A DNA stretch of 64,000 nt from an uncultured Armatimonadia bacterium (GTDB taxonomy: Bacteria; Armatimonadota; Zipacnadia; UBA1398; CAZMGT01), in assembly GCA_964565895.1 (NCBI GenBank), contig CAZMGT010000015.1:93-64092 (forward strand), given 5' to 3'. This document shows, one piece after another, positions 4,057 through 55,694 of this stretch. The notes beneath the pieces were generated by a model. It did not search any database. It saw only the letters and a list, made by a program, of their open reading frames with translations, and had not been told where the DNA came from. The stretch's first letter is position 1, and each line of letters starts with the position of its first letter. The translations under genes were made by a program, and so were the position numbers.

Positions 4057-4704
4057 TCAGCCCCCGCGCGCCTCGCGCACCACAGCGACGAACTTCTCCG
4101 CGTTTGCCGTCAGGCGGTCGAAATCGCGGTTTTTGATCGCCTCCTTCTCGACAAGGTTGCTGCCCACGCCGAGGCACGCCGCCCCGGCGCGAATGAATTG
4201 CGCGGCGTTGTCTAAGTTCACCCCGCCCGTGGGGACGAGGGGGATATGGGGCAGGGGCCCGGCCATGTCCTTGATAAACTCCGGCCCAAGCTTTGTCGCG
4301 GGAAATACCTTAACCAGGTCCGCCCCCGCGGTATACGCGGTGAGAATCTCCGTGGGCGTAAACGCTCCGGGAACGACGGGCACGCCGTAGCGGTTGCACA
4401 GGGCGATCGTCTCTACGTTAAGCGTGGGGCTAACGATAAACTCCGCACCAGCAAGGATCGCCGCCCGCGCCGTCTCCGGGTCGAGCACCGTTCCCGCGCC
4501 CACGACAATCTCATCGTCCAGCGCCTTGCGCGTCTCGGAGATCACGCGCAGAGCGTCGGGAACGGTAAACGTAACCTCGATCACATCCACGCCGCCGCGG
4601 GCGATCGCTCGGCCGACCTCGACGAGCACGGTCGGGTCGTCGGAGCGCACGACGGCCATAATGCCGCAGCGGCACAGGCGCTGGGGAGTGATTTTGCTCG
4701 CCAT
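4057..4704 (-). CDS. eda: KDPG/KHG aldolase
   Basis: IEVTF, VGAGTVLD, GAEFIVSP, PGAFTPTEI, LVKVFPA (Schiff-base Lys), PTGGVNLDN. Confidence 0.93.
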   Translation of the reverse strand: MASKITPQRLCRCGIMAVVRSDDPTVLVEVGRAIARGGVDVIEVTFTVPDALRVISETRKALDDEIVVGAGTVLDPETARAAILAGAEFIVSPTLNVETIALCNRYGVPVVPGAFTPTEILTAYTAGADLVKVFPATKLGPEFIKDMAGPLPHIPLVPTGGVNLDNAAQFIRAGAACLGVGSNLVEKEAIKNRDFDRLTANAEKFVAVVREARGG

Positions 4705-4863
4705 GGCGCACCTCCCGCGGTGTGCTCGCTAGGTTTTGCTGCCGCCCAACTTCTCAAAGCGCAGGGGGCAGGCCTTCTTGGGCGAAAAGGGCTGCGCTGC
4801 GGGCCAAGCATGTGGTGGGGGCAAGAAGTTTTTGCCGCGAAGCAGGTGTGGGGCAAAAAGTCG

Positions 4864-4869
4864 TATAAT
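4864..4869 (+). promoter_or_regulatory. Candidate sigma70 -10 element (TATAAT) for the 4971-7384 gene group
   Basis: Exact TATAAT about 100 nt upstream of ATG 4971 in a GC-rich background; no convincing -35 at 17 bp. Confidence 0.45.
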
Positions 4870-4970
4870 AAGGCTGGGCGAACGGAAATTTACGCATTAC
4901 TGCCGGCAAGGCGCGGGGCGGGGGGCTACTCGTTGGCCTCTGCCCGGGAGACGGAGTCGAGAAATTGGCA

Positions 4971-5333
4971 ATGAAGCTGAGCATTACCTGCGACTGTGGG
5001 CATAAGGTCCTGGCCAACGAAATCCTGGACACCGGGTTCTTCTTCTCCCACGGCGAGCTCGTTGGCCTCTATGTCCGATACAAGTGCCACAAATGCGGAG
5101 CGCTGCGCGAGCAGTCGTTCCATCATCCCTCGGGCACGGCGATTACCGAGCGCGCGGCGGTGCGCGCCGTCCCCCGGCGGCGGCGTGTTCCCGCGGGGCC
5201 CATCTCCACCGCCGAGGTGCGCGCGTTCGAGGGCATGCTCTACGGGCTGGACGACGAGCTGCTGCTTAGCTACCTCCGTGCGACAACGCACTTTCCCCGG
5301 CGACGGCGACGCAGGCGCCGGCCTGCTGATTAG
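4971..5333 (+). CDS. Small hypothetical protein with a putative Zn ribbon (CDCGH...CHKCG) and Arg-rich tail
   Basis: Two CxC/CxxC pairs; TAG lies 2 nt before the next GTG, consistent with an operon. Confidence 0.65.
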   Translation: MKLSITCDCGHKVLANEILDTGFFFSHGELVGLYVRYKCHKCGALREQSFHHPSGTAITERAAVRAVPRRRRVPAGPISTAEVRAFEGMLYGLDDELLLSYLRATTHFPRRRRRRRRPAD

Positions 5334-5335
5334 CC

Positions 5336-5950
5336 GTGACCGGCGATTCGTTCTCCCACTACTTCACCGCCCGGCGGCCCAATGAGCGGCGCGCTGAGCG
5401 CACGCTGTTCGTTCGCCTATGTGGGCTCGAGCTCCGTTTGCGCACCGCGGCCGGCGTGTTCTCGCGCCACCGCGTGGACCGCGGCACGGAGCTTATCCTC
5501 GAAGCCGTCCAGGTTCGCCCCGACGAGCGCACGTTAGACCTCGGCTGCGGCTATGGCGTTATGGGCATCGTCGCCGCGCGCCTCGCTCCCCAAGGCTGGG
5601 CGGTGCTTTCGGACATTAACCCCCTCGCCGTGGCCCTTGCTCGCGAGAACATCGCGCTAAACAGCGCGGACAACGCGTGGGCGCTCGTCGCCGACGGTCT
5701 TGAGCCGTTTGCCGACGAGGCGTTTTCGCTCATTTTGTGCAACCCGCCCGTGCGCGCGGGTTGGCGAGTCGTATTTCCGATGATCGACGGCGCCCCGCGC
5801 GTGCTTCGCCCGGGCGGCCGGGCGTTTTTCGTCGCCCGCACGCGCCAGGGCGCGCCCACCTTGCAAAAGCGCCTTGCCGCCGCGTTTGGCAACGCGGAGA
5901 TCGTTAACCGCGGCAGCGGCTATAAGGTCATCCGCGCGGTGAAGGAGTAG
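5336..5950 (+). CDS. Class I SAM-dependent methyltransferase, small-domain (RsmC/YbxB-like)
   Basis: GVFSRHRVDRGTELIL, LDLGCGYG, SDINPLAV, NPPVRAG, RGSGYKV. Confidence 0.9.
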   Translation: MTGDSFSHYFTARRPNERRAERTLFVRLCGLELRLRTAAGVFSRHRVDRGTELILEAVQVRPDERTLDLGCGYGVMGIVAARLAPQGWAVLSDINPLAVALARENIALNSADNAWALVADGLEPFADEAFSLILCNPPVRAGWRVVFPMIDGAPRVLRPGGRAFFVARTRQGAPTLQKRLAAAFGNAEIVNRGSGYKVIRAVKE

Positions 5951-6052
5951 CACGGCACACGTGGCGCGCCGCGCGGGGCAGGTTCCCGCGCCCGCGCAGG
6001 GAAACAGGCGCTGGTGGGCGGGTTAACTCATTTTTTCCCCAGGGAGCGAGCG

Positions 6053-7384
6053 ATGCCTCCGGCAAGACAGTGGCAGTGCGTAGTGTGCGGCTACATCCAC
6101 GAGGGGCCGGCGCCTCCAGCAACCTGCCCGAGCTGCGGCGCGCCATATACGGCGTTTTTGCTCCGCGGGGCGGACGTTAGCGAGAAGTTTCGCGATGTGC
6201 GCCTCGTTGAGCCGCGGCCAGGGGGTTTTCGCTACGTAATCGTGGGCAACAGCTCCGCCGGGCGCGCCGCAGCGCAGGCCATCCGCGCCGTTCACCCCGC
6301 GGGCGCGGTTACCATCGTTTCCGAGGAAAGCGTCCCCTTTTACTACCGCCCCATGCTCCCGGACTTCATCGCAGGAATGCCCGCGCAGCGCCTGTTTGCC
6401 GCGAAAGACGGCGCGAGCGAGGGCGTTGAGCTGCTCGCCGGGGTGCGCGCAGAGCGCGTGGACCCCGAAAAGCGCGCCATTGTCTGCGCGGACGGGCGCA
6501 CCATGGCCTACGATGCCCTGCTCCTCGCCACGGGGGCGAGCGCGGTGACCGTGCCCTGGGCGGGGGCTGAGGGCGAAGGGGTGTTTTACCTCAGGTCCTA
6601 CGCCGACGCCCAACGCATCGCCCAGCGCGCCGCGGGGGCGAAACGCGCCGTGGTTGTCGGGGGAGGCCTTCTCGGGCTGGAGCTCGTCCGCGCATTTTCC
6701 GGCTTGGGCTTAAACATCGTTCTCCTCGTGCGCGAGCCGCACGTGCTTCAGCCCACGGTGGACGAGCCCACCGCCGAGGTCGTCGAAGCCGCCCTCGCCG
6801 CGCAGGGCGTGGAGCTCGCCTTGGAGGAAGAGGTGGTCAGCTTCGCCGTGCGCGACGGCCAGGTGCGCGCGGTGCACACCTCGCGCGGGCGAAGCGTGCC
6901 TTGCGACATCGTTGGCGTGGCTGTCGGCGCGCGCCCGCGCACGGAGCTTGCGGAAAGCGCAGGCGCGCGCGCAGGGGCGGGCGTGATCGTTAACGAAAGG
7001 TTTGAAACGTCTGTTCCCGCGATATTCGCCGCGGGCGACGTGGCCCAGGCATACGATCGAGTTTGGGGCGAGCCGCGGGTGAACACCTCGTGGCGCAACG
7101 CCCAGGAGCAGGGCGAGCTTGCCGGCCTGGCCATGGCCGGAGCCGAGGTGAGCTTTCCGGGCGCCGTGGGCGTTACCTTTCAGCTCGTCGCGGGCCTGCC
7201 GTTTTGCACAATGGGCCTGGCCAACCCGCGTGACCCGGAAAACTACGAGGTCGAGCTTGAGGCGAGCGTAAAAAAGCGCGTCGTGCGCAAGCTCGTGCGC
7301 AGGAAGGGAAAGCTCGTCGGCGCCTGCCTCCTCGGCGACATGTCGCCCGCGCCGGAGCTGGAGCGCGCCCTACGCGGGGACTAG
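6053..7384 (+). CDS. Rubredoxin-like domain fused to an FAD/NAD(P)H oxidoreductase (NROR/NirB-N-like)
   Basis: WQCVVCGYIHEG...CPSCGAP; YVIVGNSSAG; LLLATGA; GGGLLGLE; ETSVPAIFAAGDVA. Confidence 0.9.
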   Translation: MPPARQWQCVVCGYIHEGPAPPATCPSCGAPYTAFLLRGADVSEKFRDVRLVEPRPGGFRYVIVGNSSAGRAAAQAIRAVHPAGAVTIVSEESVPFYYRPMLPDFIAGMPAQRLFAAKDGASEGVELLAGVRAERVDPEKRAIVCADGRTMAYDALLLATGASAVTVPWAGAEGEGVFYLRSYADAQRIAQRAAGAKRAVVVGGGLLGLELVRAFSGLGLNIVLLVREPHVLQPTVDEPTAEVVEAALAAQGVELALEEEVVSFAVRDGQVRAVHTSRGRSVPCDIVGVAVGARPRTELAESAGARAGAGVIVNERFETSVPAIFAAGDVAQAYDRVWGEPRVNTSWRNAQEQGELAGLAMAGAEVSFPGAVGVTFQLVAGLPFCTMGLANPRDPENYEVELEASVKKRVVRKLVRRKGKLVGACLLGDMSPAPELERALRGD

Positions 7385-7432
7385 CGGCGGCTCGCACCCC
7401 GGAGCGGGGCCGGGCTGGGCCGCTCCCCCAGG

Positions 7433-10105
7433 CTACGGCAGAACCTGCACCTGCTCGCGCGGCAGATCGAGCATTAATCCCCGCCCGTGCACCGTGGTAA
7501 TCAGCGAGCGGGCGAACTTCTTGCCCGCGACCTGCCCGATGCGCTCGACGAGATGAAACCGGTGGTAGCGGATTTGGTTTGGCTCGACAAACTCCTCTTC
7601 GCCCCATATCTTCCGATACAGCTCGTCGTAGCTAACGCACTCCTCGGGCCGGTCGGCAAGCGCCGCGAGAAGGTCGAATTGTTTCGGGGTGAGCTTAACC
7701 ACCTGCCCGCGGACGACAACCTCAAGGGGCCTGCTGCGCACAATGCGCAGGCAGGCCTGCCGCGCGGGCTTTGCGGGCTCGGCGGGAACCGGAGCGGCCG
7801 GCGAGAAGACATCCGGCACTCCCCGAGCGGCGCACCTTTTGCCCGCAGCTTCGCGCAGCGCGCTCGCCAACCGCTCGGGAAGCATTAGTCGGAGCAGCTC
7901 CGGGCTTGCCCCAAGCACGTCCTCGGCGCTGTTTACCCCTCCCTCAAGCAGGCGCAGCAAATACCCCCGCGTCAGCCCAGCCACCCCCAGCCGAGCAAGC
8001 TCCAACCCCTGCGCCGGGCAGGAGTGCGCCAGGCACGCCTGCAACGTCGCCATGCGCTCGGACAGGCCGCGCCAGCTAGGGTGATGCACATCGACAAACG
8101 CCCTCAGCGCGGCGACGATCCACGCCAGATCCGCGCACAGCTCGACGAGCGCGCCAGCAAGCATGCGGTGGCGCTGCTCCACGGTACGCGTCGGCTCGCG
8201 GCCGATCCAATCCCAGGCGGCAAGGGCCGCTTTTGCAGCGCGCGCGCTGGGCGGCGAGCCGGGGGGATAGCCGACAAGCTCGGCGACATCCGCCGCGCAG
8301 CCCTGCTCCGCGAGAAGGCGGGCCAGCCGGCGCTCGTGCACGAGGGCCTCGACCTCGCTGCGCCACAGAGGGACAACCACGCGCCGGCCGTCGTGGCACA
8401 ACGCGGCGCGGACGAGAATTTCCAGCTCGCACAGCGACTCGCTCTCCAGCCCCTCTGCCCAGCGGGCGAGCTCAAGGCACGTGGCGGCGCCCAGGCCGTG
8501 GGCCGCCCCTAGCGCGAGCGCCGGGCTTGGGCAGAGCCCCCCGCTGTTGCGCAAAACCAACCCCTCGGCCTCCAGCTCTGCCAGCGCGGCGCGCGCGTCG
8601 TCGCCGGCAAGGCCGCCTTCCCGTCGGGCAAGGGTGTGCTCGGCCACCGCGGCGAGCTCCTCCGCGCCGCAGCCGGGGTGCGCCGCGACATAGCGCGCGG
8701 CGATGTCGGCCAGGCTTTTGTCACAAAGCGCGCTGTGCAGCGCGGGCAGCTCGCTCTCCACATACACGGCGAGGAGCGAGTCGCGGGCAAACTCGTTCTC
8801 GGCGAAAAGCATCGCCCGGCCAAACGGCATTTTCTCCACGCCGCCCAGCCGCCCCGCGCGCCCGGCCATGTTCTCAAACTCCGCGCGGCTAATCTCGCCC
8901 GCCCCCCACTGCTCCCCGCGAGCGACGGTAAGCCACTTGCGGTGGTCAATGAGCACATTGCGAAAGGGCAGGTTCATGCCCATGGCCAGCGTAGCCGTGG
9001 CGCACACCGCGCGGATCTCTCCCAAGCGCGCGTGTCGCTCGACGACCTCGCGCTCCTCGCGGGTAAGGTCCGCGTGGTGCACGGCGACGCCGCTTTGCAA
9101 CAGGCGCTCGAGGTGGGCCTTGGCGGTGGTTTCCTCGAGCTGAGCGAGGTCGCGCAGGGCGCTTGCGGCGGGCGCTAGCCCGGCGAGCTGGCCAAGCTGC
9201 GCCGCGGCGGCGAAGCACATGCGCTTTGAGGGCAAAAACAAAAGGCAGCTCTCGCCCCGCGCAAGCAGCACCCGCGCCGTAAGCACCATATCGCGCAACA
9301 CAGCGTCTTCGCGCAGCCCGTCCAATGGGCTGCCGCTCGCGGCAAGCGCATCGCGGGCCTCCTCGCCCCAAAGGTCCTCCATGCCCCAGGTCTGCGAGTT
9401 GTGCTCGAGGTAGTGAAACTCGCCGCGCAGGACAACGCCCTTGCGCAGCTCAACGGGGCGCTGCTCTTCTTCGAGGACGTCGGCGTCGAGCCACTGCGCG
9501 GCTTCGTGCCCGTCCGCGGTCGCCGCCGACAAGGCGATGATCCTCGGCCCGCAGGGCAGGCTGAGCACCTCGGCGAGGAGCATTTCCAGCGCCGGGCCGC
9601 GCTCAGGGTCGCCTACAAGGTGCAGCTCGTCAACGACGATCAGCTCCGCGTTGGCGAGCAGGTGCGGCTGCTGCGCGGAAAGCGCCTGGAGCTTTTCCGC
9701 AACGCCCAGGCAAATGTCAAACTCGCCCCGGCGAATTAACCTATCGTACTCCCGCCGCTCGCGCGTGGTAACGACAACGCGCAGGCCCACGGGCCCCAGG
9801 GCTTCGCTCAGCTTCTCGAACTTCTCCACGGCGAGCGCCCGCGTGGGGAGAAGGTAGAAGCTGCGCTGGCGCCGGCGCGCAGCGTCGATCGCCGCGAGGT
9901 CGCCGATAAGCGTCTTTCCCGCGGAGGAGGGGGCGAGGACGAGGAGATTGCGCCGGCGGCCGGGCGGGCCGGGCGAACTTGCCAGAAGCCCAAACTCAGC
10001 GATCGCCCGCTCTTGCACGGGGAGCAGCGTCGCCCCCCAGTGTGCGCGCAGCGCGGCGATAAGCTGCTCGGAAAACCCATAACCCTCAAGCGCGGACATT
10101 TTCAT
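7433..10105 (-). CDS. Ski2/Hel308-like SF2 helicase with C-terminal HhH-like region and OmpR/PhoB-type winged-helix domain
   Basis: Q motif LLPVQ, APSSAGKT, PTRALA, DELH, VAVHHADL, TATLAMGMNLP, NMAGRAGR; C-terminus LTPKQFDLL...SYDELYRKIWG...ITTVHGRGLML. GGAGG 8 nt before ATG 10105. Confidence 0.9.
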   Translation of the reverse strand: MKMSALEGYGFSEQLIAALRAHWGATLLPVQERAIAEFGLLASSPGPPGRRRNLLVLAPSSAGKTLIGDLAAIDAARRRQRSFYLLPTRALAVEKFEKLSEALGPVGLRVVVTTRERREYDRLIRRGEFDICLGVAEKLQALSAQQPHLLANAELIVVDELHLVGDPERGPALEMLLAEVLSLPCGPRIIALSAATADGHEAAQWLDADVLEEEQRPVELRKGVVLRGEFHYLEHNSQTWGMEDLWGEEARDALAASGSPLDGLREDAVLRDMVLTARVLLARGESCLLFLPSKRMCFAAAAQLGQLAGLAPAASALRDLAQLEETTAKAHLERLLQSGVAVHHADLTREEREVVERHARLGEIRAVCATATLAMGMNLPFRNVLIDHRKWLTVARGEQWGAGEISRAEFENMAGRAGRLGGVEKMPFGRAMLFAENEFARDSLLAVYVESELPALHSALCDKSLADIAARYVAAHPGCGAEELAAVAEHTLARREGGLAGDDARAALAELEAEGLVLRNSGGLCPSPALALGAAHGLGAATCLELARWAEGLESESLCELEILVRAALCHDGRRVVVPLWRSEVEALVHERRLARLLAEQGCAADVAELVGYPPGSPPSARAAKAALAAWDWIGREPTRTVEQRHRMLAGALVELCADLAWIVAALRAFVDVHHPSWRGLSERMATLQACLAHSCPAQGLELARLGVAGLTRGYLLRLLEGGVNSAEDVLGASPELLRLMLPERLASALREAAGKRCAARGVPDVFSPAAPVPAEPAKPARQACLRIVRSRPLEVVVRGQVVKLTPKQFDLLAALADRPEECVSYDELYRKIWGEEEFVEPNQIRYHRFHLVERIGQVAGKKFARSLITTVHGRGLMLDLPREQVQVLP

Positions 10106-10137
10106 CGGCGGTTCCTCCACTGGCTGAGGTACCGCTC

Positions 10138-10166
10138 ATAATAGCAAACATTTGTTTGCATTGCAA
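10138..10166 (-). promoter_or_regulatory. Sigma70 promoter of the helicase (TTGCAA-17-TATTAT) with a LexA-box-like palindrome GCAAACATTTGTTTGC (10144-10159) in the spacer
   Basis: Minus strand reads TTGCAA tGCAAACAAATGTTTGC TATTAT; 17-bp spacing; AAAC-N4-GTTT resembles the GAAC-N4-GTTC SOS box. Confidence 0.7.
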
Positions 10167-10490
10167 GGCAAAAAATCCCGCCGGGGGCAAAAAACCCCCT
10201 GCCGGCCCCCGACCGACCATTCCGGAGTGTGACACGCGGTTGCGAGACGACAAACCTGCAGCGCGAGCTTTTCCACCGCGCCACGCTTGACCCGCCGCCT
10301 CCGTCCGCGAGAGCGGAGAGAACTAGCTGGCCGGCGGAAAGCGTCTCAGCGCAGGCCGGGGGGCTGGGGCCACGTTTGCTCTCGCCCAGCGGGCAAAAAA
10401 TCTCGCCGCGGGCAAAAATGCTTGCCCCGGGGCGGGCCATCGCGCGGGCTCCGAGCCTTGGTCGAGGCAAAAAAATTTTCCGCCGCGGGC
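10167..10490. repeat. Three copies of a ~25-27-nt motif GGCAAAAAAT-CYC-GCCGSGGGC(AAAAA)
   Basis: 10167-10193 and 10392-10418 match at 25/27 positions; a looser copy lies at 10466-10490. Confidence 0.7.
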
Positions 10491-10517
10491 CACATGCGCT
10501 TCTCCCCGCGGCGGAAA
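10469..10517 (-). terminator. Rho-independent terminator of the sugar ABC/oxidoreductase operon
   Basis: Perfect 13-bp stem TTTCCGCCGCGGG (10477-10489) / CCCGCGGCGGAAA (10505-10517), followed on the minus strand by A-T7, about 25 nt after the stop at 10543. Confidence 0.8.
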
Positions 10518-10542
10518 CTCCTCTCAACGTCACCCGCCCGCG

Positions 10543-11547
10543 CTAGCCCACGGGATAGATCAGGTCTTGAATCTCTGGCTTGTCCAGGTTCTCCTTGGTA
10601 ACCACGGTAACGCCCGTGTCAATCCGCTTTTGCACGGACTTGCCGTTGATCGTGTCGATCGCCGCCTTAACGCCCTCGTAGCCCATCTTAAACGGGTTTT
10701 GCACGATAAGCGCCTGGATGGTCCCCCGCTCCAGGGCGTCGACCTCGGTCTTGGAGGCGTCGAAGGCCACCAGCTTAACCTTTCCCGCAAGCCCGCGCTG
10801 CTCGATCGCGGCCGCGGCGCCCACGCCGCCCGGCTCGTTTGCGGCGAAAATGCCCGCGAGGTCCGGGTGCGCGGTAAGCATGTCCTCGGTAACTTTGCGC
10901 GCCGTCTCCGTGTCGCTCTGGCAGTAGAGCACGCTGCACAGCTCGATGTTCGGATACTTGGCGATCTCCTCGCGGAAGCCCTTCTCCCGCTGGTCGGAGC
11001 TCTCCGCGCCCTTGAGGAACGGGATCAGCCCCACCTTCCCCCTCTCGCCGATGAGCTCGGCCAGCTTGCGCGCGGCGATCCTCCCACCTTCCACGTTGTC
11101 CGTGGCCACGAAGCTCACCGGAATCTCGTCGTTGTTAATCCCGGAGTCGATGGTCACCACAACGACGCCCTCGTCCTTCGCTTTCTGGGCGACGGTAATT
11201 AGCGCGTCCGCGTCGCACGCGGCAAAGACAAGCGCGTCAATGCCGCGCTCGATGAAGTCCTCGATAATCCGCTTTTGCTGCTCGATTTCGCGCTCGTCGG
11301 CGGGCCCGTTCCAGAGGATTTTCGCGCCGAACTCCTCGGCTGCTTTCTCCGCCCCCGCTTTAACGCTCAGCCAGAACACATGCGCCGTGCCCTTGGGGAC
11401 GACGGCGATCTCTAGCTGCTTGCCCGCCTGCTCGCCCGCGGCGCCGGGCGCGGGGCTGGCCTGCTCCCCCGCCTCCTTCCGCGCGCAGCCCAGGGCAAGC
11501 AGGGCCACAACTGCCGCTACACAGGCAATCGCCGCAGCTCTTCGCAC
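10543..11547 (-). CDS. Sugar ABC transporter substrate-binding lipoprotein (RbsB/Peripla_BP_4 family)
   Basis: Lipobox LALGC; VPKGTAHVFW, VATDNVEGG, KLVAFDAS, LIVQNPFKMGYEGV, IDTGVTVVTKEN. Confidence 0.93.
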   Translation of the reverse strand: MRRAAAIACVAAVVALLALGCARKEAGEQASPAPGAAGEQAGKQLEIAVVPKGTAHVFWLSVKAGAEKAAEEFGAKILWNGPADEREIEQQKRIIEDFIERGIDALVFAACDADALITVAQKAKDEGVVVVTIDSGINNDEIPVSFVATDNVEGGRIAARKLAELIGERGKVGLIPFLKGAESSDQREKGFREEIAKYPNIELCSVLYCQSDTETARKVTEDMLTAHPDLAGIFAANEPGGVGAAAAIEQRGLAGKVKLVAFDASKTEVDALERGTIQALIVQNPFKMGYEGVKAAIDTINGKSVQKRIDTGVTVVTKENLDKPEIQDLIYPVG

Positions 11548-11565
11548 AGCAAATCCCTCCTGCCA

Positions 11566-12558
11566 CTATCCAGCGCGTCGGCGACGGCGCCAGTAGTCGA
11601 TGTACACGGCAACGACAATAATAGACCCGATGGTAATATCCTGCCAATGCTCGGGCACGCCTTTTTGGTTTAGCCCGTTAACGAGCACGGCCATGATAAA
11701 CGCGCCGACGATCGTCCCGGCAATGCCCCCCTCGCCGCCCATCAGGCTCGCCCCGCCGATAACCGCGGCGGCGATCGCCCGCAGCTCATACCACAGCCCG
11801 GTCGTCGGCGAACCTACGGTTAGCCGCGCCGTATGGAGCACGCCGGCGAGGCCGGTAAGCAGCCCGCACAGGGCGAACACCGCCGTCTGATAGCGCTCCA
11901 CGGGGATGCCAGAAAGGCGCGTGGCCTCCATATTGCCCCCCATGGCGTAGGTATAGCGCCCCAGGCGCGTCCGCTTAAGGACAAAGTGCCCGGCGATCGC
12001 CACGAGGACCATAATCACCAAAAGCAGGGAGATCTCCACCTTCTCCCCGTGCCAGGAGCCCACGGGAAAGCGCCAGGAGAGAAAGTGTAAGCTCTGGGGC
12101 AGGCCGCTTACCGTGTGCGCGCCGGTAATGTGCTTGGCCACCCCGCGGCACACCATGAGCGTGCCCAAGGTAACCACGAACGAGGGCATGCGCGCCGACG
12201 AGGTAAGAAAACCGTTGAGCAGCCCAACCAAGCTCCCCACGGCTATCCCGCCGACGATCCCCGCCCACAACGACCCCGTGCGCACCATAAGCAGCGCCGT
12301 GGTCACGTTGCTCAGGGCGAGGAGCGAGCCTACGGAGAGATCGATCCCCGCGGAGATAATCACGAACGTTTCCCCCACGGCGACGATGCCCAGGACGGCC
12401 GTTTGCTCGCCGAGCTGGAGCAGGTTGCGTATCTCAAAAAAGTGCTCGGTGGTGACCGCGAAAAAGATGGTCAGCGCGACGAGCGTGGCAAACGGCCCGA
12501 GCCTGTCGGAGAGCTCCAGGGCGCGCTGCTTCCAGGTAATCTCTTGCGCTTGCTTCAT
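11566..12558 (-). CDS. Sugar ABC transporter permease (RbsC/BPD_transp_2 family)
   Basis: GIDLSVGS, MPSFVVTLG, TRLGRYTYAMGGNMEATRLSGI, ELRAIAAAVIGGASLMGGEG; likely start MKQAQ at 12558. Confidence 0.93.
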   Translation of the reverse strand: MKQAQEITWKQRALELSDRLGPFATLVALTIFFAVTTEHFFEIRNLLQLGEQTAVLGIVAVGETFVIISAGIDLSVGSLLALSNVTTALLMVRTGSLWAGIVGGIAVGSLVGLLNGFLTSSARMPSFVVTLGTLMVCRGVAKHITGAHTVSGLPQSLHFLSWRFPVGSWHGEKVEISLLLVIMVLVAIAGHFVLKRTRLGRYTYAMGGNMEATRLSGIPVERYQTAVFALCGLLTGLAGVLHTARLTVGSPTTGLWYELRAIAAAVIGGASLMGGEGGIAGTIVGAFIMAVLVNGLNQKGVPEHWQDITIGSIIVVAVYIDYWRRRRRAG

Positions 12559-12669
12559 CTTCTCCAGCGTTGTGCAACAGAGCTTGGGCGAGTCCGAGGG
12601 ATAATACCCAAAGGGCCGCTCGGCCGTCAAAGGCTTGCCGCGGCCGCTTTAGGCGGCGCACAGCGGCGC

Positions 12670-13752
12670 CTAGGACTTCCCCAGCCACAGGTCAATGGGT
12701 TTTTTCGCGTCGGTCTCAAACGGCAGCTCCACGCGCTGGCCCGTGGCCGCGGAGTGATATGCGGCGAAGATGATCTCAAGCACCGCGCGGCCGTCCTCGC
12801 CCGTCTCCAGCGGCTGCTTGTCGTTTTTCACGCAGTCTACGAAGTGCTCCATCTCTTGGGGAAAGCCGTAGTTCCAGGCCTCCTCAAACACGGTAAAGCT
12901 CCAGCCCACCGTGGTTGCCGCCTTCTCTACGGCGTAGTCGTAGCCCACGCGGCTGTAGGTGTGGATGGCGATTCCGCGGAGCAGGTCGGCGTAGGCCACG
13001 CCCTCCGAGCCATAGGCCTCGGCGCGGTCGTCCATCCCGCCGTGCTTGGCCCAGCTCTCCTCAGCGACGCACTGCACCTCGCCCTCGAAGTTGACGATGA
13101 TCACCGCGTTGTCGTCGCCCTTCGTGCGCTCTTTCCAGACAAACGTGCCCATGTCGGCATAGACGCTCAGCGCGCGCGGCTTGCCCAGCATCCAGCGAAA
13201 AAACTCAAACGCATGGCAGCCCATGTCCATGGTTACCCCGCCGCCGGACAGCTCCACGTCCCAAAACCAGGGCGAGTGCGGGCCGTCGTGCTTTTCGGAC
13301 TGCTTCAGCATGTAGATTTTCCCCAACGCGCCTTGGTCCACAAGCTGCTTCAGGCGGACGTATTTTGGCGTAAAGCACAGCTCCTCGGCATACATCAGCT
13401 TAACGCCGGCCTTCTTGCACTCCTCGATCATCATGTCCGCCTCGGCGAGGTTCATGCACAAGGGCTTTTCGCAGACGACGTGCTTGCCCGCGCGCGCCGC
13501 GGCAACGCACGCCTCGGCATGCAAATAGTTGGGCAGGCACAGGTTTACCATCTGGATCTCGTCCAGCTCGAGCATCTTGCGATAGTCCGTAAACCAGTGC
13601 GGAATGCCGTGCTTTTCGGCAAACGCCTTCGCATGCTCCTCAGTGGGCGAGGCGACGGCGACGATCTCCGCGTCGGCGACGCGCTTGAGCGCTTCGGCGT
13701 GTATCTCCGCGACAAACTGCGAGCCAACAATTCCCACGCCAACCTTGCTCAT
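12670..13752 (-). CDS. Gfo/Idh/MocA family oxidoreductase
   Basis: GIVGSQF, AGKHVVCEKPLC, GGGVTMDMGCH; likely start MSKVG at 13752. Confidence 0.92.
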   Translation of the reverse strand: MSKVGVGIVGSQFVAEIHAEALKRVADAEIVAVASPTEEHAKAFAEKHGIPHWFTDYRKMLELDEIQMVNLCLPNYLHAEACVAAARAGKHVVCEKPLCMNLAEADMMIEECKKAGVKLMYAEELCFTPKYVRLKQLVDQGALGKIYMLKQSEKHDGPHSPWFWDVELSGGGVTMDMGCHAFEFFRWMLGKPRALSVYADMGTFVWKERTKGDDNAVIIVNFEGEVQCVAEESWAKHGGMDDRAEAYGSEGVAYADLLRGIAIHTYSRVGYDYAVEKAATTVGWSFTVFEEAWNYGFPQEMEHFVDCVKNDKQPLETGEDGRAVLEIIFAAYHSAATGQRVELPFETDAKKPIDLWLGKS

Positions 13753-13927
13753 AAGCCGCTCCCTCCCGGCAAACCTCAGCGGCGCAAGTTTCGCTTCGCG
13801 CGCAAGCAAAACCTGCCGCGGCGCATCCCATCGCCTTCGCGGGGCGCCCGCCTGGGGCGCGGCTGGGCCCGAGGCGAACGCTCCGCAAAAGCATCGCGCA
13901 GCCCCCGCCGCTGTGGGCGGTTTTCGT

Positions 13928-20146: not shown

Positions 20147-21580
20147 CTACTCGGGGACGAGATCCGTCCGGGCGATCTTCTGCCAGTAAAACCAGAACTT
20201 CTCTAGGTATGGGTCGCAGAAGCGGTAGCCGGTCATGTCGCCCTTGTCGCCCGTCTCAAACCAGCGGACGACCTGCGGCTGCGCCTCGTGCTCCCTGAGG
20301 AAGCGCACCACCGCGGCGTGCAGGCGCTGGGCCACGCGCGGGTGCTGGGCGACAACGTTCTTGCGCTGCTCCCGGTCGCGCCGCAGGTCGTAAAGCTCCC
20401 AGCGCTCGCGCTGCGGGAAGACGTGCATCGCCCAGCGGCCATCGTGCACGGTAATGCACGCCGTCTCGCGCTGGGCGTTGGGCGCGCCGCCGGAAAAGGC
20501 AAACTCGCGCAGCTCCTCCGTCTCGCCACGCAGCACGGGGACAAGCGACCTCCCCTGAACGCACTCCGGCACAGGCACGCCGGCGAGCTCAAGCAGCGTG
20601 GGCATAAGGTCCGGCGGTTGGGCAAGCGCGGAAAACCGCCGCCCCGCGGCCGTGCCATCGGGCAGGCGAATGATCAGCGGAATGCGCGCCACGGGCTCAT
20701 ATAGCGGGGTGGACTTGGTCATGATCTGCCCGTGCTCGCCGAGGTACGTCCCGTGGTCGGAGGTGGCGATAATCGCTGTGTTCTCGCGCAGCCCAAGGCG
20801 GTCCACGGCGTCGAGCAGCTCGCCCAGCCAGCGGTCGACAAGCGACACCTCGCCCGCGTATAGCGCGCAAATGTGCCTGCGCTCGGCCGGCGTGAGCACC
20901 TCAAGCGAGCGCGGGAACATGATAATTACCTCGCCCCGATAGCCCGGGTCGTAAAGGTCCACGTAATGCTGGGGCGGGTCCCAGGGTTCGTGGGGGTCGA
21001 AGCAGTCGATCCACAGCAAAAACCGCTCGCGGTCGCGGTTGTCCTCAAGCCAGCGAATGGCCGCTTTGATCGTCTGCGCGGGGAAGTAATCCTCCTCATT
21101 GCGCCGCTCGCGCACGTTGCGCAAGTATTGCGCGAGGGTAAGGTTCGTCGGCCGCGGCTTAATTTTGGCTACGTTTTTCGTGGGCAGGTCAAGCGGCTTG
21201 GTGTCCAGGCGAAAGCGGTCTACCTCGTTGCCGCGGATCATCACCCACGCGTGAAACGGGCGGTCGAACCCGTGGCCCGCGTTTATCAGGTGCGGCGTGT
21301 CGTTGATTAGCTGGGTAACATAGCCCGCCTCGGCGAGGGCCTCGGGCAGGGTCACCGCGTCCCAGGCCAGGGGCAGCCAGGGGTGCAGCGGCTCGCCATA
21401 GCGGCCGGTAAGCAGGTCCGTGCGGTTGGGGATCGTGGGGAACGACGCGGCGTAAGCTCGCTCGAACACCGCCCCCTCCGCGGCGAGGCGGTCGAAGTTC
21501 GGCGTGTGTATCCACTCGTTGCCGTAGCAGCCGAGATGGTCCGCGCGCAGCGTGTCGTTCATCACCACGATGAAGTTCAT
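20147..21580 (-). CDS. Sulfatase-like hydrolase with Thr at the nucleophile position
   Basis: NDTLRADHLGCYG, TPNFDRLAAEG, SFPTIPNRTDLLTG, FDPHEPWDPP, TSDHGTYLGEHG. Confidence 0.9.
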   Translation of the reverse strand: MNFIVVMNDTLRADHLGCYGNEWIHTPNFDRLAAEGAVFERAYAASFPTIPNRTDLLTGRYGEPLHPWLPLAWDAVTLPEALAEAGYVTQLINDTPHLINAGHGFDRPFHAWVMIRGNEVDRFRLDTKPLDLPTKNVAKIKPRPTNLTLAQYLRNVRERRNEEDYFPAQTIKAAIRWLEDNRDRERFLLWIDCFDPHEPWDPPQHYVDLYDPGYRGEVIIMFPRSLEVLTPAERRHICALYAGEVSLVDRWLGELLDAVDRLGLRENTAIIATSDHGTYLGEHGQIMTKSTPLYEPVARIPLIIRLPDGTAAGRRFSALAQPPDLMPTLLELAGVPVPECVQGRSLVPVLRGETEELREFAFSGGAPNAQRETACITVHDGRWAMHVFPQRERWELYDLRRDREQRKNVVAQHPRVAQRLHAAVVRFLREHEAQPQVVRWFETGDKGDMTGYRFCDPYLEKFWFYWQKIARTDLVPE

Positions 21581-21622: not shown

Positions 21623-22933
21623 CTAAGTAATGGGCGACTTTTTCATTTCCATCTTCTCGTGGTCGTACTCCATGCGGCAGCCGTTGCGATAGGACATGTT
21701 CGCGAGAATCGTGGCCACGGCGTGGGCATAGCCCCAGTCGATGTTCGAGCGCGGCTGCTCCCGCGTGCGCAGGCACTGCAGCCAGTGCTGCATGTGGTCT
21801 ACGCTCGGTGGCTTGGGATAGTCTATCCCCTCTTTGGGAATAAGCTTGCTCTTGTCTACGCGGAACGAGGGGTTGGGGTCCTCGGGGTTTTCGCAGATAA
21901 CCTCGCCCCCGCCGCCGTCGGGCACGGCCTTGCCCCCGGGGGTAACCGTGCCGCGCGTGCCGTAGATGGTAATCCCCCGCCCGTTGGCGGAGTTTCCCAG
22001 GCGCATGTGGTAGCGGCAGAGGATTCCCTCCGGATACTCCCACAGGGCGTCGATGGTGTCCGGGTTGGTCCGCCCGTCCTGCCACAGGTAGACCCCGCCC
22101 CAGCACATGGCATACTTGGGGATGGAGTCCAAGCACACGTTAACTTCGTTCATGGCGTGGCTCGCCCACTGGCACAGGCACCCGCTGGAGAACGGCCAGA
22201 ACAAGCGGAACTCAAGGTAATAGCGCGGGTTAAACGGGATGTACGGGAGATAGCACAGCCAGCGCCGCCAGTCTACGTCTTTTTCGGTAATTGCCGTCTC
22301 CGACCCCCTAATGCGCCAGCGCTGCTGGAAGAGGGGCTGGGCGACCTCGACGTAAGTCACCTTGCCCAGGCCGCCGGACTTAATAAACTGCTGCGTGCCC
22401 CACAGCCCGCCGGAGCTTCCCGCCTGCGTGCCCACCTGAACCACGCGCTTTGTGCGCTTAACGGCCTGCCAGCACAGCTTTACCTGCTCGAAATCACACC
22501 CCAACGGCTTCTCCACATAAACGTCCTTGCCCATCTCCACGGCCATCCGGCAGTGCGGGGCGTGTTGGAAGTCCGCCGTGGCAATGATGACCGCGTCTAC
22601 CTCCTTCAGCTGGCAGAGCTCCTCTAGGTTGCGGCAGATAATGGGCTTTTTGCCCGTCCAATCCTGAACGATCTTCGCCGCGCGCTCGCGCCGGTCCTTA
22701 AGCAGGTCGGCCACGGCGACGAACTCGCAGTTTTCCGTTTTGGCAAACTTGTTCGCCCAGGCCATTAGCGAGCGCCCGCGACTCCCCGGCCCAGCGATAC
22801 CCAGGGCAATGCGCTCGTTGGCCCCCAGCGGCCGGTCCTGGGGCATGGCGTTAACCACGCCCAGCGCCATGCTTGCCGCGGCAAGCGAGGCCTTTTGCAA
22901 AAAAGCCCGCCGCGTGCTCCTCGCCCGTCCCAT
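21623..22933 (-). CDS. Tat-exported Gfo/Idh/MocA oxidoreductase
   Basis: STRRAFLQ twin-arginine signal; ANERIALGIAGPGSRG; GKDVYVEKPLG; VVQVGTQ. Confidence 0.9.
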   Translation of the reverse strand: MGRARSTRRAFLQKASLAAASMALGVVNAMPQDRPLGANERIALGIAGPGSRGRSLMAWANKFAKTENCEFVAVADLLKDRRERAAKIVQDWTGKKPIICRNLEELCQLKEVDAVIIATADFQHAPHCRMAVEMGKDVYVEKPLGCDFEQVKLCWQAVKRTKRVVQVGTQAGSSGGLWGTQQFIKSGGLGKVTYVEVAQPLFQQRWRIRGSETAITEKDVDWRRWLCYLPYIPFNPRYYLEFRLFWPFSSGCLCQWASHAMNEVNVCLDSIPKYAMCWGGVYLWQDGRTNPDTIDALWEYPEGILCRYHMRLGNSANGRGITIYGTRGTVTPGGKAVPDGGGGEVICENPEDPNPSFRVDKSKLIPKEGIDYPKPPSVDHMQHWLQCLRTREQPRSNIDWGYAHAVATILANMSYRNGCRMEYDHEKMEMKKSPIT

Positions 22934-26050: not shown

Positions 26051-26097
26051 GTTGCCCCACCTCTCGCGATGTCGTAGGGGAAGAGGTTCTCTTGCCG

Positions 26098-26126
26098 TTG
26101 CCAAACTCCTGCCTTCGGGTTATAAC
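26098..26126 (+). promoter_or_regulatory. Candidate sigma70 promoter TTGCCA-17-TATAAC
   Basis: 17-bp spacing; about 30 nt upstream of ATG 26155. Confidence 0.6.
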
Positions 26127-26154
26127 CGGCGCGGCTTTCCCGGGGAGCTGCGCA

Positions 26155-27795
26155 ATGAGCGAGCGCAAGGCCAAACTCATGCTCGCCGCCATCGTCCTCT
26201 GGCTGAGCGTTGTCGCCTGGAGCAACCGGTTCGTTCAGGACGACGCGTTCATCTCGTTTCGCTACGCGCAAAACCTCGTGCACGGGCACGGACTTGTCTT
26301 TAACCCAGGCGAGCGGGTGGAGGGATACACGAATTTTCTCTGGACCGTCCTCGTCGCAGGCGGCTTGGCTTTGGGAATCGATCCCGTGGCGTTTACATTT
26401 GTGGTAGGCATCATATGTTTCGCGCTATCCTTAATACTGACATACAAACTCTCGCGCCTGCTCCTCCGCTCCACGGAGACTGCGCTGCTTACCACAATAC
26501 TCCTGGGAACAAACTACACATTTAGCTGCTACGCCACAGGTGGGCTGGAAACGCAGCTTCAGGCGGCGCTACTTACGTGTTGCGCCTGGCTTGCCCTGCG
26601 CTGGGAAAAAGACGGGCGGTATTCTGGAAAATCCCTTGCTGCGCTTTCCCTTGTTTCCGCGCTGGCCGTCCTAACGAGGCCGGATTCGTTGTTGCCTGTC
26701 GCTGTGTTTTGTGGTTATGCGCTGGCCCAAGCCGCTTCTGCGCGAAAGGAGAGACAAGAGTGGCTGAAAAACGTGGTTTTCTTAGCCGGCCCCCTTTTTC
26801 TTGTCATCGGGCCTTGGCTTTTGTGGAAAGTGGCTTTTTACGGCGAGCTTCTGCCAAACACATTCTACGCAAAGGTCCACGGCGTGGGCTTAATTGAGGG
26901 ACTGCGCTACTTATGCTTGTTCGCTTTATCGTACTTCCTTGTTCCTTTCCTCGTATTATTTGCGTTGAGTTTGAAAAACATTTTCCGTAGCGAAGGGAGA
27001 AGGCTGTGCGTAGTGGCATTTGTTGTTATCGCGTGGTGTGTTTATGTGGCTTGCGTTGGGGGAGATTTTATGGAGTTTAGGTTTCTTGTCCCGGTAATGC
27101 CGCTGATGTTTGTCGTAGTCGGTTGGCTCTGCTTTGTGTTTCCCATGAGGCGCGAGGTGCAACTGGCCCTGGCAATTGTCGTCCTCTTGGGAAGTGTGCA
27201 CCACGCGCTAACGTTCGGTAAAGCGCTTGACACACACGGGGTTGAGACAATAGCGGACCTCGAGGGCCACCTTTTCCGCGAGGATGAGAACTGGGTTGGC
27301 GTGGGCAAGGCTTTGGGGAAGTATTTCGGCGGTTCGGCCGTGGTGCTTGCCTGCAAGCCGTGCGGGGCGATTCCCTTTTACTCGGGCCTGCCCACGATAG
27401 ACATGCTCGGGCTGAGCGATCGCTGGATTGCCCGCCACGGCTGGGTGCCGCAAGAGCAACGCGCGGGGCACCGCCGCGAGGCCACGCTGGGCTACCTTGT
27501 CGCGCGCAAGGCGAACTTGGTTGTCGGCCATCCCGAGGTACTATCAACAGCCGCTCCGCACAAGCCGTTTTACACCGTCACCGACATCAATGCGACATGG
27601 GTGCACGTAGACGACCCTAACCTTTTGCCGCACGAGGCGAAAATCGTTGCGATTCCCATTGGCAGAGGGCACGAGCTGCTTGCGCTTTATCTTGTGCGGC
27701 ACGAAAAGATCGAGGAAACTATTCGTCGCCGACGCTGGAGGACTTACCCAATATATTTTTGCAAACCGGCCGCGCGGCCACACGTTAAAGCCTAG
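26155..27795 (+). CDS. Polytopic GT-C-fold glycosyltransferase-like membrane protein (AftB/PMT-like)
   Basis: QDDAFISFRYAQNL..GHGLVFNPGERVEGYTNFLW, GGLETQL, LTRPDS, LLPNTFYAK, GGDFMEFRFLVP, GAIPFYSGLPTIDMLGLSD. Confidence 0.8.
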   Translation: MSERKAKLMLAAIVLWLSVVAWSNRFVQDDAFISFRYAQNLVHGHGLVFNPGERVEGYTNFLWTVLVAGGLALGIDPVAFTFVVGIICFALSLILTYKLSRLLLRSTETALLTTILLGTNYTFSCYATGGLETQLQAALLTCCAWLALRWEKDGRYSGKSLAALSLVSALAVLTRPDSLLPVAVFCGYALAQAASARKERQEWLKNVVFLAGPLFLVIGPWLLWKVAFYGELLPNTFYAKVHGVGLIEGLRYLCLFALSYFLVPFLVLFALSLKNIFRSEGRRLCVVAFVVIAWCVYVACVGGDFMEFRFLVPVMPLMFVVVGWLCFVFPMRREVQLALAIVVLLGSVHHALTFGKALDTHGVETIADLEGHLFREDENWVGVGKALGKYFGGSAVVLACKPCGAIPFYSGLPTIDMLGLSDRWIARHGWVPQEQRAGHRREATLGYLVARKANLVVGHPEVLSTAAPHKPFYTVTDINATWVHVDDPNLLPHEAKIVAIPIGRGHELLALYLVRHEKIEETIRRRRWRTYPIYFCKPAARPHVKA

Positions 27796-52519: not shown

Positions 52520-52548
52520 CGGCAACCACCCTGTCCTCGCCCCCGCCT

Positions 52549-52578
52549 ATTGTACACTATTGTCGCCCGCGGTTGACA
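52549..52578. promoter_or_regulatory. Divergent promoter region: TACAAT (-10, minus strand, for the ATPase) and TTGACA (-35, plus strand)
   Basis: ATTGTA at 52549-52554 and TTGACA at 52573-52578; the partner elements are weak. Confidence 0.35.
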
Positions 52579-52712
52579 GAACGCGCCCCGCGGGGTACGC
52601 AAAATGCGCAGCCCGTGGGCGTCTAACAAAACTGGGCGCTGGCTGCGCAGTGCGCCGCGTTGGCCGGCGGCCTTTAGGGTTTGCACAAAGCGCTTTGCCC
52701 AGGAGGTCGGCT

Positions 52713-55502: not shown

Positions 55503-55694
55503 CGTCGCCGCTTTAGCGGCCAGGCCCTTGCCCGCGACTCCAGGGCAAAGCACAGAACATGGGCAAAATCCCTCGCGTCTATAGGGGCGAGGCGCGCGCT
55601 TTCAGCTCTTGCGCAGGCGTGCCCGCTCGTCGCGATAGGCGGCGCGGCGAGCGGGCCGCCCGGCGCATTTTCTGTGGAGGAGGGTGCGGCCGCA

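Follow-up and report, generated by a model that had tools for sequence, protein, structure and literature searches.

A gene in the 64,000-nt stretch of contig CAZMGT010000015.1 analyzed here (the window), which comes from an uncultured Armatimonadia bacterium, is predicted to encode a five-domain Hel308-type helicase of superfamily 2 (SF2) fused to a winged helix-turn-helix (wHTH) domain of the OmpR/PhoB type. The gene occupies positions 7433 to 10105 on the minus strand, and sequences resembling LexA operators lie upstream of it and of many of its homologs. The reading we favor, at slightly better than even confidence, is that its product is a DNA-damage-inducible Hel308-family SF2 helicase or translocase with a tethered wHTH that binds duplex DNA. 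A first-pass annotation, made from the sequence of the window, had not recognized the fusion as a characterized protein, and the literature bears this out: searches that took in a 2026 review of Hel308 and HELQ turned up no account of a Hel308 from bacteria that carries an OmpR-type domain or is under SOS control.

The helicase core and the C-terminal domain

The coding sequence and the predicted parts of its product are as follows; boundaries between domains 3, 4 and 5 are approximate.

7433-10105, minus strand: complete coding sequence of the Hel308-wHTH fusion helicase, 890 amino acids plus stop (list of open reading frames and translation; an ENA contig has an identical protein)
9401-10105, minus strand: predicted RecA-like domain 1, residues ~1-235, with Q-motif LLPVQ, motif I APSSAGKT, motif II DELH and motif III SAA (Pfam DEAD, 50-196; invariant G63, K64, T65, D159 and E160)
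8756-9400, minus strand: predicted RecA-like domain 2, residues ~236-450, with HHADL, motif V TATLAMGMNLP, a predicted β-hairpin at 389-404 and motif VI NMAGRAGR (Pfam Helicase_C, 330-421; model; invariant columns)
8486-8755, minus strand: predicted domain 3, an internal winged helix (WH), residues ~451-540 (H-H-H-β-β in the model; colinear with Hel308 structures)
8021-8485, minus strand: predicted domain 4, the helical 'ratchet', residues ~541-695, with a long helix at 650-674 (weak PF21280 match, 622-676; model; conservation)
7820-8020, minus strand: predicted domain 5, helix-hairpin-helix (HhH)-like, residues ~696-762, holding ELARLGVAGLTRGYLLRLL and invariant R713 (weak HHH_5 match, 706-754; NF040935 match to residue 753; Foldseek)
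7751-7819, minus strand: predicted disordered Pro/Ala-rich linker, residues ~763-785 (predicted local distance difference test, pLDDT, <50 at 764-781; 12% identity and 14-53 aa across homologs)
7436-7750, minus strand: predicted OmpR/PhoB-type wHTH, residues 786-890, with β-sheet 786-804, α1 807-817, α2 826-834, recognition helix α3 844-860 and wing 869-879 (PF00486; isolated-domain model; Foldseek; conservation)

Residues 1-762 are thus predicted to make up a full Hel308-type helicase, in the order RecA1-RecA2-WH-ratchet-HhH, with all the catalytic motifs. Each of the motifs quoted in the first-pass annotation (APSSAGKT, DELH, HHADL, TATLAMGMNLP, NMAGRAGR, ELARLGVAGLTRGYLLRLL, LTPKQFDLL and ITTVHGRG) is present in the translation, and G63, K64, T65, D159, E160, G415, R416, G418 and R419 are invariant among 39 homologs. 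Pfam matched the core to DEAD (1.3e-20) and Helicase_C (8e-9), with sub-threshold matches to Helicase_dom4_arc and HHH_5. In domain 4, W662 is conserved in ≥90% of homologs, many of which match PF21280 significantly.

Three kinds of search placed this core in the Hel308 clade, as the first-pass annotation had proposed, and not with Lhr, RecQ or HamB. First, four archaeal Hel308 models headed the NCBIfam matches (182-246 bits), with NF040935 aligning residues 2-753 to its positions 2-699/704; models for Lhr, RecG and DpdF scored far lower. Second, in a sequence search of the PDB, archaeal Hel308/Hjm proteins came first (2zj2, 2p6r and 2va8; E values of 1e-46 to 1e-36), and 2va8 was colinear with the window protein (53-752 versus 48-705). 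ASCC3, Brr2, Pol-theta and Ski2 followed, and HamB reached only 1e-18. Third, an AlphaFold2 model of the full-length protein, built from 39 homologs (pLDDT 90.4; predicted template modeling score, pTM, 0.81), has residues 764-781 as its sole disordered stretch. Foldseek comparison of this model with the PDB again returned Hel308/Hjm first, with template modeling (TM) scores of 0.83-0.88 (target-normalized, ~770 aligned columns), then the helicase domain of Pol-theta (~0.76) and then Brr2. In the model, strands 389-393 and 400-404 are predicted between TATLAMGMNLP and NMAGRAGR, with low pLDDT at the tip. The NCBIfam scores do not reach the Hel308 equivalog cut-offs of 887-1216 bits. On sequence grounds, therefore, the window protein appears to belong to a distinct bacterial subfamily of the Hel308 structural family and not to be an equivalog of archaeal Hel308.

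The first-pass annotation had also proposed a Trans_reg_C-like wHTH at the C-terminus, and this held up. PF00486 (Trans_reg_C), whose gathering score is 26.2, matched residues 800-878 with 49.2 bits (E = 5.4e-13) and aligned at all but one of its 77 positions, and the PDB sequence search matched the C-terminus to the DNA-binding domain of SaeR (1.4e-7). When the C-terminal 109 residues were modeled alone, pLDDT was 94.9 and the predicted fold comprised an N-terminal β-sheet, three helices and a β-hairpin wing. The top 50 Foldseek matches of this isolated domain were all OmpR-family DNA-binding domains (TM ≤0.84; root-mean-square deviation ~2 Å), among them those of BaeR, PhoB, ArlR, GlnR, CovR, SaeR, RpaA, CadC and ToxR. 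Residues L816, A817, Q844, G876 and L879 are invariant in the homolog alignment. The recognition helix is basic, with the consensus Q-I-x-x-H-K/R-x-R-L in homologs and QIRYHRFHL in the window protein, and the wing keeps K/R-R-G in homologs, where the window protein has HGRG. Taken together, sequence and model indicate that residues 786-890 form a genuine wHTH of the OmpR/PhoB fold. Its basic recognition helix and wing are compatible with DNA binding and are silent on sequence specificity.

We considered whether the protein might be a response regulator and rejected this, as neither Pfam nor NCBIfam gave a Response_reg match that would mark a receiver domain in the window protein, and its N-terminus is a helicase. 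Fusion helicases of the Hydrogenedentota type (e.g. those of L010, L014, L023 and L027) have an additional tail of ~8 residues ending in -AA (...VHAA, ...GSAA, ...SNAA and ...PSAA), which the window protein lacks. These tails resemble C-terminal degrons of the ssrA/ClpX type.

LexA-type boxes and gene context

The reading frame runs unbroken from ATG at 10105 to the stop codon at 7433-7435. There is also an in-frame GTG at 10120, but with GGAGGA standing before the ATG, at 10118-10113, we judged the GTG to be the less likely start. The region just upstream of the gene contains the following.

10113-10118, minus strand: putative Shine-Dalgarno sequence GGAGGA, 7 nt before the ATG (sequence reading)
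10138-10166, minus strand: putative sigma-70-like promoter, with -35 TTGCAA (10166-10161), a 17-bp spacer and an extended -10 TATTAT (10143-10138) (consensus scan)
10144-10159, no strand assigned: perfect 16-bp palindrome GCAAAC-AAAT-GTTTGC, a candidate LexA (SOS) operator and variant of the GAAC-N4-GTTC type (the sole exact match in the window)

The promoter matches the consensus at 9 of 12 positions and TG precedes its -10 element; the scan found 2 sites in the region against 0.2 expected. The palindrome fills the spacer between -35 and -10, at about -52, and the GAAC-N4-GTTC boxes of Armatimonadota homologs likewise lie near -50. We took a census of such boxes upstream of the homologs, using tblastn-defined starts and a background rate per 190-bp window.

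Hydrogenedentota: ACTG-N10-CAGT with ≤1 mismatch (typically TACTGAAT-N4-ATTCAGTA), 24/24 assessable loci, at -31 to -130, background 3.5%
Armatimonadota: exact GAAC-N4-GTTC, 9/12 loci, plus one GAAC-N4-GTTT, at -50 to -58, background 0.26%
Ignavibacteria/Zixibacteria/Fibrobacterota-Chlorobiota-Bacteroidota (FCB) group: TGCAC-N4-GTGCA, 3/4 loci, at -117 to -175, background 0.28%
Binatia-type short forms lacking the wHTH: no box, 0/15 loci
Myxococcota, with WYL/recA genes instead: no box, 0/5 loci

These three types of box appear to correspond to known classes of LexA box, changing with the lineage of the host; the third we take to be the Fibrobacter type, TGCNC-N4-GTGCA. LexA boxes of the E. 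coli type have been given as CTGT-N8-ACAG or CTG(TA)5CAG (PMC8565304; PMC3091678), and those of the B. subtilis type as CGAAC-N4-GTTCG (PMC3091678). From the latter, the box in the window departs by a symmetric change, G to A in one arm and C to T in the other. Its AAAC-N4-GTTT core recurs in the lexA promoter of a Planctomycetota locus (L036; CTAAAC-GATT-GTTTGG), and a TCAAC-AATC-GTTGA box is found at locus L064. By position and analogy, the identification of the window palindrome as a LexA operator is suggestive rather than proven. In the Balneolaeota, which belong to the FCB group, a LexA regulon validated by EMSA (electrophoretic mobility shift assay) counts among its members 'a helicase' whose family is not specified (PMC7739468). 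This is the one possible overlap that we met with earlier work: the helicase might be a member of the present Hel308-like family, as in the Ignavibacteria loci.

To learn whether the palindromes belong to LexA or are operators of the helicase itself, we scanned metagenomes for TACTGAA-N6-TTCAGTA. Of 120 sampled occurrences, those on four independent contigs without the helicase (L092, L095, L102 and L112) precede a lexA reading frame by 11-12 nt, which argues that this sequence is a real LexA operator. The lexA genes that carry the box (those of L092, L095, L102, L112 and L126) encode proteins 57-64% identical to the LexA of L002. As judged from these sequences, they define an apparent autoregulatory lexA operator of the CTG-N10-CAG type in a non-gammaproteobacterial lineage of 55-59% GC.

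Genes of the damage response also recur beside the helicase. In five loci (L002, L006, L019, L036 and L064), lexA, with LexA_DNA_bind and Peptidase_S24 domains, lies directly upstream in the same orientation, and in three of the five the gap of 27-60 nt is operon-like. In Myxococcota, the gene order is WYL/WCX regulator, recA, helicase (L013 and L024) or WYL regulator, helicase (L031 and L043). Apart from this recurrence of lexA and of WYL/recA upstream, a survey of gene neighborhoods revealed no conserved partner: when all open reading frames from 85 loci were clustered, no gene accompanied the helicase across phyla, and synteny was confined to clades. The LexA-type operators, together with the lexA, recA and WYL neighbors, point to a damage-inducible repair role rather than to the coupling to transcription that the first-pass annotation had entertained.

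Other neighbors were seen in particular groups. In Planctomycetota-type loci, a conserved protein of 252-262 aa with no Pfam match recurs near the helicase (L035:5564-6322, L036:4764-5522, L064:5989-6777 and L019:6788-7546), together with lexA in three of the four. The lexA-helicase pair of L002 (64-6116) adjoins TraG/FtsK-like and split SNF2-like genes, possibly at the border of an integrative element, and in L005 (3732-5063) a TIR-domain protein is encoded two genes upstream of the helicase; neither the TraG/SNF2 nor the TIR neighbors recurred in other loci. The short forms of ~735 aa that lack the wHTH (Binatia, Methylomirabilota and relatives) have, in 13 of 15 loci, a conserved protein of 485-593 aa with no Pfam match encoded downstream on the same strand (L048-L051, L057, L059, L061, L063, L071, L075-L077 and L080; at ~10.2-11.7 kb in each). 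Most Binatia-type loci also have conserved upstream genes in common. In these helicases the 485-593-aa protein may, as a partner encoded apart, stand in for the fused wHTH.

In the window itself, the helicase gene is convergent with a gene for a rubredoxin-type NAD(P)H oxidoreductase (6014-7384, plus strand), and a 437-bp intergenic region divides it from an upstream operon for a sugar ATP-binding cassette (ABC) transporter (10543-13809, minus strand). Further neighbors encode a small methyltransferase, an FHA protein, 2-keto-3-deoxy-6-phosphogluconate aldolase and a glycogen-debranching enzyme. The best match to the debranching enzyme, at 50% identity, came from a metagenome-assembled genome of Armatimonadota, so that the organism is deep-branching. 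The gene looks monocistronic amid housekeeping genes, with no HamA-like or other defense gene near it and no other repair gene found in the 64-kb window. Elsewhere (17617-64000) the window holds genes for a sulfatase (20147-21580, minus strand) and a glycosyltransferase (26092-27795, plus strand), many large open reading frames without an NCBIfam match (e.g. 47962-50004, 52287-55502 and 55674-58457) and no tRNAs.

Upstream of the helicase promoter, on the minus strand, two near-identical 22-nt elements, GCCCsCGGCGrGATTTTTTGCC, occur at 10392-10413 and 10167-10188 (0.01 expected by chance). A third copy, with indels, lies at ~10470-10495, and 22896-22917 is a further position. Another TTTTTGCCC stands 19 nt upstream of each exact element, and the last copy abuts the -35. 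These elements could be tandem weak terminators of the upstream ABC operon or resemble a repetitive extragenic palindromic (REP) element; they could also serve as an UP element or as direct repeats to which a protein binds.

Spread and descent of the fusion

The first-pass annotation had described the protein as standing alone. This is borne out insofar as neither HamA nor any other defense or recurrent partner was found in 82 loci. The protein is, nevertheless, no isolated oddity, as it belongs to a large and ancient family. A word-indexed search of 5.8 billion proteins, with a cut-off of 1e-10, gave 308 matches, the nearest of which, apart from the identical protein of the ENA contig, were only 35-39% identical. 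Most of the 308 are 860-900 aa long, contain PF00270, PF00271 and PF00486, and are named at most 'DEAD/DEAH box helicase'. When 1.84 billion cluster representatives were searched exhaustively with a profile, 6,816 proteins scored below 1e-30; the best 150 of these were all below 1e-177, and most aligned to the end of the profile, i.e. through the wHTH. Among GTDB species, each represented by a single genome, there were 564 relatives, and the best 80 of the 564 all came from metagenome-assembled genomes. The members of the family are all from uncultured organisms.

The fusion forms fall into dozens of clusters at 50% identity. They are most numerous in Hydrogenedentota and are also found in Armatimonadota/'Zipacnadia', Myxococcota, Nitrospirales, Sumerlaeota, Atribacteria, Syntrophales, Ignavibacteria and Zixibacteria. 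Planctomycetota have long forms with a divergent C-terminus; Binatia and Methylomirabilota have the short forms. For ~900-aa forms lacking a PF00486 match, a Pfam scan returned no C-terminal match. Alignment with hhalign to the wHTH block indicated that such forms keep a homologous C-terminal domain, with 96% probability for the Myxococcota type (E = 2.7e-9) and 58% for the Planctomycetota/Ignavibacteria type (E = 1e-4, whole domain aligned). Two loci have two helicase paralogs each, in tandem on the same strand in L033 (1047 aa and 912 aa; 4304-10721) and nearby on opposite strands in L043.

Across the 39-sequence alignment, identity to the window protein is 40% for the wHTH, 44% and 39% for the two RecA domains, 22-29% for domains 3-5 and 12% for the linker. 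Pairwise identity of the wHTH correlates with that of the core (r = 0.93, 741 pairs). The wHTH thus equals the motor in conservation and varies along with it, from which we conclude that the fusion is a single, old one, inherited vertically with the motor and under purifying selection. In tblastn searches, no homolog was detected in 50,697 phage genomes and no full-length homolog in 72,556 plasmids, where matches were to the RecA core only (≤55% coverage at ~31% identity).

Proposed role, alternatives and known systems

If the protein is a damage-inducible, DNA-anchored helicase, its action may be pictured as follows. In the undamaged cell, LexA bound to the palindrome in the promoter spacer would block RNA polymerase; upon damage, RecA-stimulated cleavage of LexA would derepress the helicase gene. 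Loading would take place on 3' single-stranded DNA, be it at a gap, a stalled fork or a D-loop, and the enzyme would translocate 3' to 5' as archaeal Hel308 does, its RecA1/RecA2 motor working together with the ratchet domain and the β-hairpin wedge. The wHTH, lying ~25 flexible residues past HhH domain 5, would grip the neighboring duplex and so raise affinity and specificity for junctions of single- and double-stranded DNA. In this way the wHTH, which we infer to anchor the helicase to duplex DNA, might replace the recruitment role of the partners (PCNA, RPA) of archaeal and eukaryotic Hel308/HELQ.

Several observations weigh against this picture. The window protein has His at the position equivalent to Arg201 of PhoB, and most homologs have Arg there. 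The AAAC-N4-GTTT core occurs once in the 64 kb, where 0.65 copies of this 12-nt sequence are expected by chance, so the operator call for the window gene rests on position and analogy. The palindrome was likened to LexA boxes of other lineages and may not be that of the host; similarly, the LexA-box classes of Hydrogenedentota and Armatimonadota were assigned by resemblance to known boxes. Loci within a phylum are related, and hence the counts of boxes are not independent trials. Even so, the boxes have likely been selected, since the homologs are only 31-37% identical and unselected intergenic palindromes would not persist over such distances. Finally, WYL regulators control phage-defense systems as well, which makes a WYL neighbor ambiguous.

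One alternative is that the wHTH has been re-purposed for protein-protein or intramolecular contact, either as an autoinhibitory brake, in the manner of Hel308 domain 5, or as a handle for RNA polymerase, single-stranded-DNA-binding protein or RecA. The OmpR/PhoB domains of response regulators contact sigma-70 and the C-terminal domain of the alpha subunit, which lends this idea some precedent. The full-length model has a high pTM, considering that a disordered linker joins its two bodies, and the invariant residues of the wHTH are mostly core positions, plus Q844. On the other hand, basic residues persist in both the recognition helix and the wing, and a linker that varies in length from homolog to homolog suits a tether better than a fixed dock. 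We regard a re-purposed wHTH as unlikely, though conceivable.

Alternatively, the protein could be a one-component damage-sensing regulator, with the wHTH as sequence-specific output, the Hel308 module as a sensor of single-stranded or branched DNA and the palindromes, perhaps, as its own operators. PF00486 domains are overwhelmingly effectors of transcription factors, and the fold match is close, down to the α2-α3 loop with its conserved WG; conservation of the wHTH equals that of the motor, and direct-repeat TTTTTTGCC elements abut the -35 in the window. Against this, the ATPase/helicase motifs are all invariant, arguing for a working motor, and the upstream palindromes represent three known LexA-box classes that vary by host lineage, one of them found upstream of lexA on contigs with no helicase. 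Moreover, the sites bound by the OmpR family normally take the form of direct repeats, and such repeats in phase show no enrichment upstream of the fusion genes (2.1 versus 1.24 ± 2.7). This argues against simple autoregulation, and we rejected the idea that the wHTH has its own operator there. A regulator of this kind thus seems improbable.

A bolder proposal would have the wHTH direct the Hel308 motor by sequence or through the transcription machinery, i.e. to specific duplex sites or to RNA polymerase, or would make the protein a damage-sensing transcription factor with single-stranded-DNA translocation as its input, in either case as a hitherto unrecognized core member of the SOS regulons of several uncultured phyla. 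We consider this a long shot. If true, it would be the first helicase to take its direction from sequence or from the transcription machinery, and loading of the motor at duplex sites or at RNA polymerase would mean that forks can be repaired by a new route, either transcription-coupled or site-directed.

That the protein is an orphan anti-phage helicase, akin to HamB of the Hachiman system or to PDC-M23B, a candidate in PADLOC, appears highly improbable. PADLOC profiles do match the RecA core (PDC-M23B, 125 bits; HamB, ≤98 bits), a TIR-domain gene and TraG/SNF2 genes lie near single homologs, and, as said, WYL regulators can govern defense systems. These profile matches are restricted to the core, whereas the Hel308 profiles score higher over the full length; partners such as HamA are absent from the loci, the neighborhood in the window is one of housekeeping genes, the searches of phages and plasmids came up empty of full-length homologs, and the SOS boxes and lexA/recA linkage fit repair. 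A Ski2-like RNA helicase that helps to degrade RNA, remove R-loops or rescue ribosomes has very little to recommend it either: RNA-acting relatives (Brr2, ASCC3/Slh1, Mtr4 and mycobacterial HelY) are among the PDB matches and bacterial Lhr unwinds RNA:DNA hybrids (PMC5758891), but the window protein most closely matches Hel308/Hjm, which are DNA helicases, and the helicase domain of Pol-theta, the accessory domain is of a fold that binds double-stranded DNA, and the regulatory context is one of DNA damage.

Returning to a damage-inducible helicase anchored to duplex DNA, its interest would lie in the following. A five-domain Hel308 in many bacterial phyla, if indeed under LexA/WYL damage control and fused to a wHTH, would widen the known range of this helicase and give a bacterial entry to its debated function. 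Hel308/HELQ has been studied as a repair helicase of archaea and metazoa, and work on bacterial repair centers on RecG, RecQ, UvrD, PriA and Lhr. The fusion would amount to a natural experiment in targeting a helicase without partner proteins. Furthermore, the boxes are candidate SOS operators for Hydrogenedentota and Armatimonadota, for which we know of no described SOS regulon.

Among known systems, RecQ is a functional analog only: a 3'-to-5' SF2 repair helicase in which an accessory winged helix holds the duplex at the junction. In some Bacteroidetes, RecQ is LexA-regulated (PMC8565304). It belongs to another helicase family, with an RQC winged helix plus HRDC, and its WH is an integral RQC domain, unlike an OmpR-type wHTH on a flexible tether.

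Hachiman HamB shares a Ski2/Hel308-related RecA core with the window protein, which differs in lacking an adjacent gene for the HamA (DUF1837) nuclease, the HamB-specific N-terminal region and a defense-island or mobile context. We rejected identity with HamB, given that its profile covers the core only and that the neighbors are the rubredoxin-type reductase gene and the sugar ABC operon.

The Lhr of mycobacteria, inducible by DNA damage, is a 3'-to-5' SF2 helicase whose domains 1-3 are Hel308-like; its C-domain bears no relation to domains 4-5 of Hel308, and it has no β-hairpin wedge (PMC5758891). In contrast, the window protein has predicted domains 4-5 of the Hel308 type and the predicted hairpin at 389-404. 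Identity with Lhr or with the ligase-associated DEXH helicases was likewise rejected, on these domain matches and on scores of 70 bits versus 850 for TIGR04121 and 29 versus 1496 for PRK09751.

With the OmpR/PhoB-family effectors (PhoB, BaeR, ArlR, SaeR, GlnR and the receiver-less CadC and ToxR), the C-terminal domain has in common its predicted fold and topology, a PF00486 score above the gathering threshold, LLxxLA, WG, basic residues in the recognition helix and, in the wing, G876. It differs in being attached to a helicase, with no receiver, transmembrane or BTAD partner, in its signature of invariant Q844 and 'VEPxQI', and in having no evident direct-repeat operator.

Metazoan HELQ and the helicase-like domain of Pol-theta share the Hel308 fold and have a role in replication-associated or crosslink repair (PMC13623763). 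They carry their own N-terminal extensions (a PWI-like fold in HELQ) or a fused polymerase and no C-terminal wHTH, and it is RPA and RAD51 paralogs that recruit them, not a domain of their own for binding double-stranded DNA.

The closest likeness is to archaeal Hel308/Hjm (2p6r, 2va8, 2zj2/2zj8 and 9b15), with which the window protein has in common the order of the five domains, colinearity over ~700 residues, all the SF2 motifs and the β-hairpin between motifs V and VI, at the TM scores given above. It is only 22-24% identical to these proteins and, unlike them, is bacterial, carries an extra linker and wHTH, and is apparently under LexA control.

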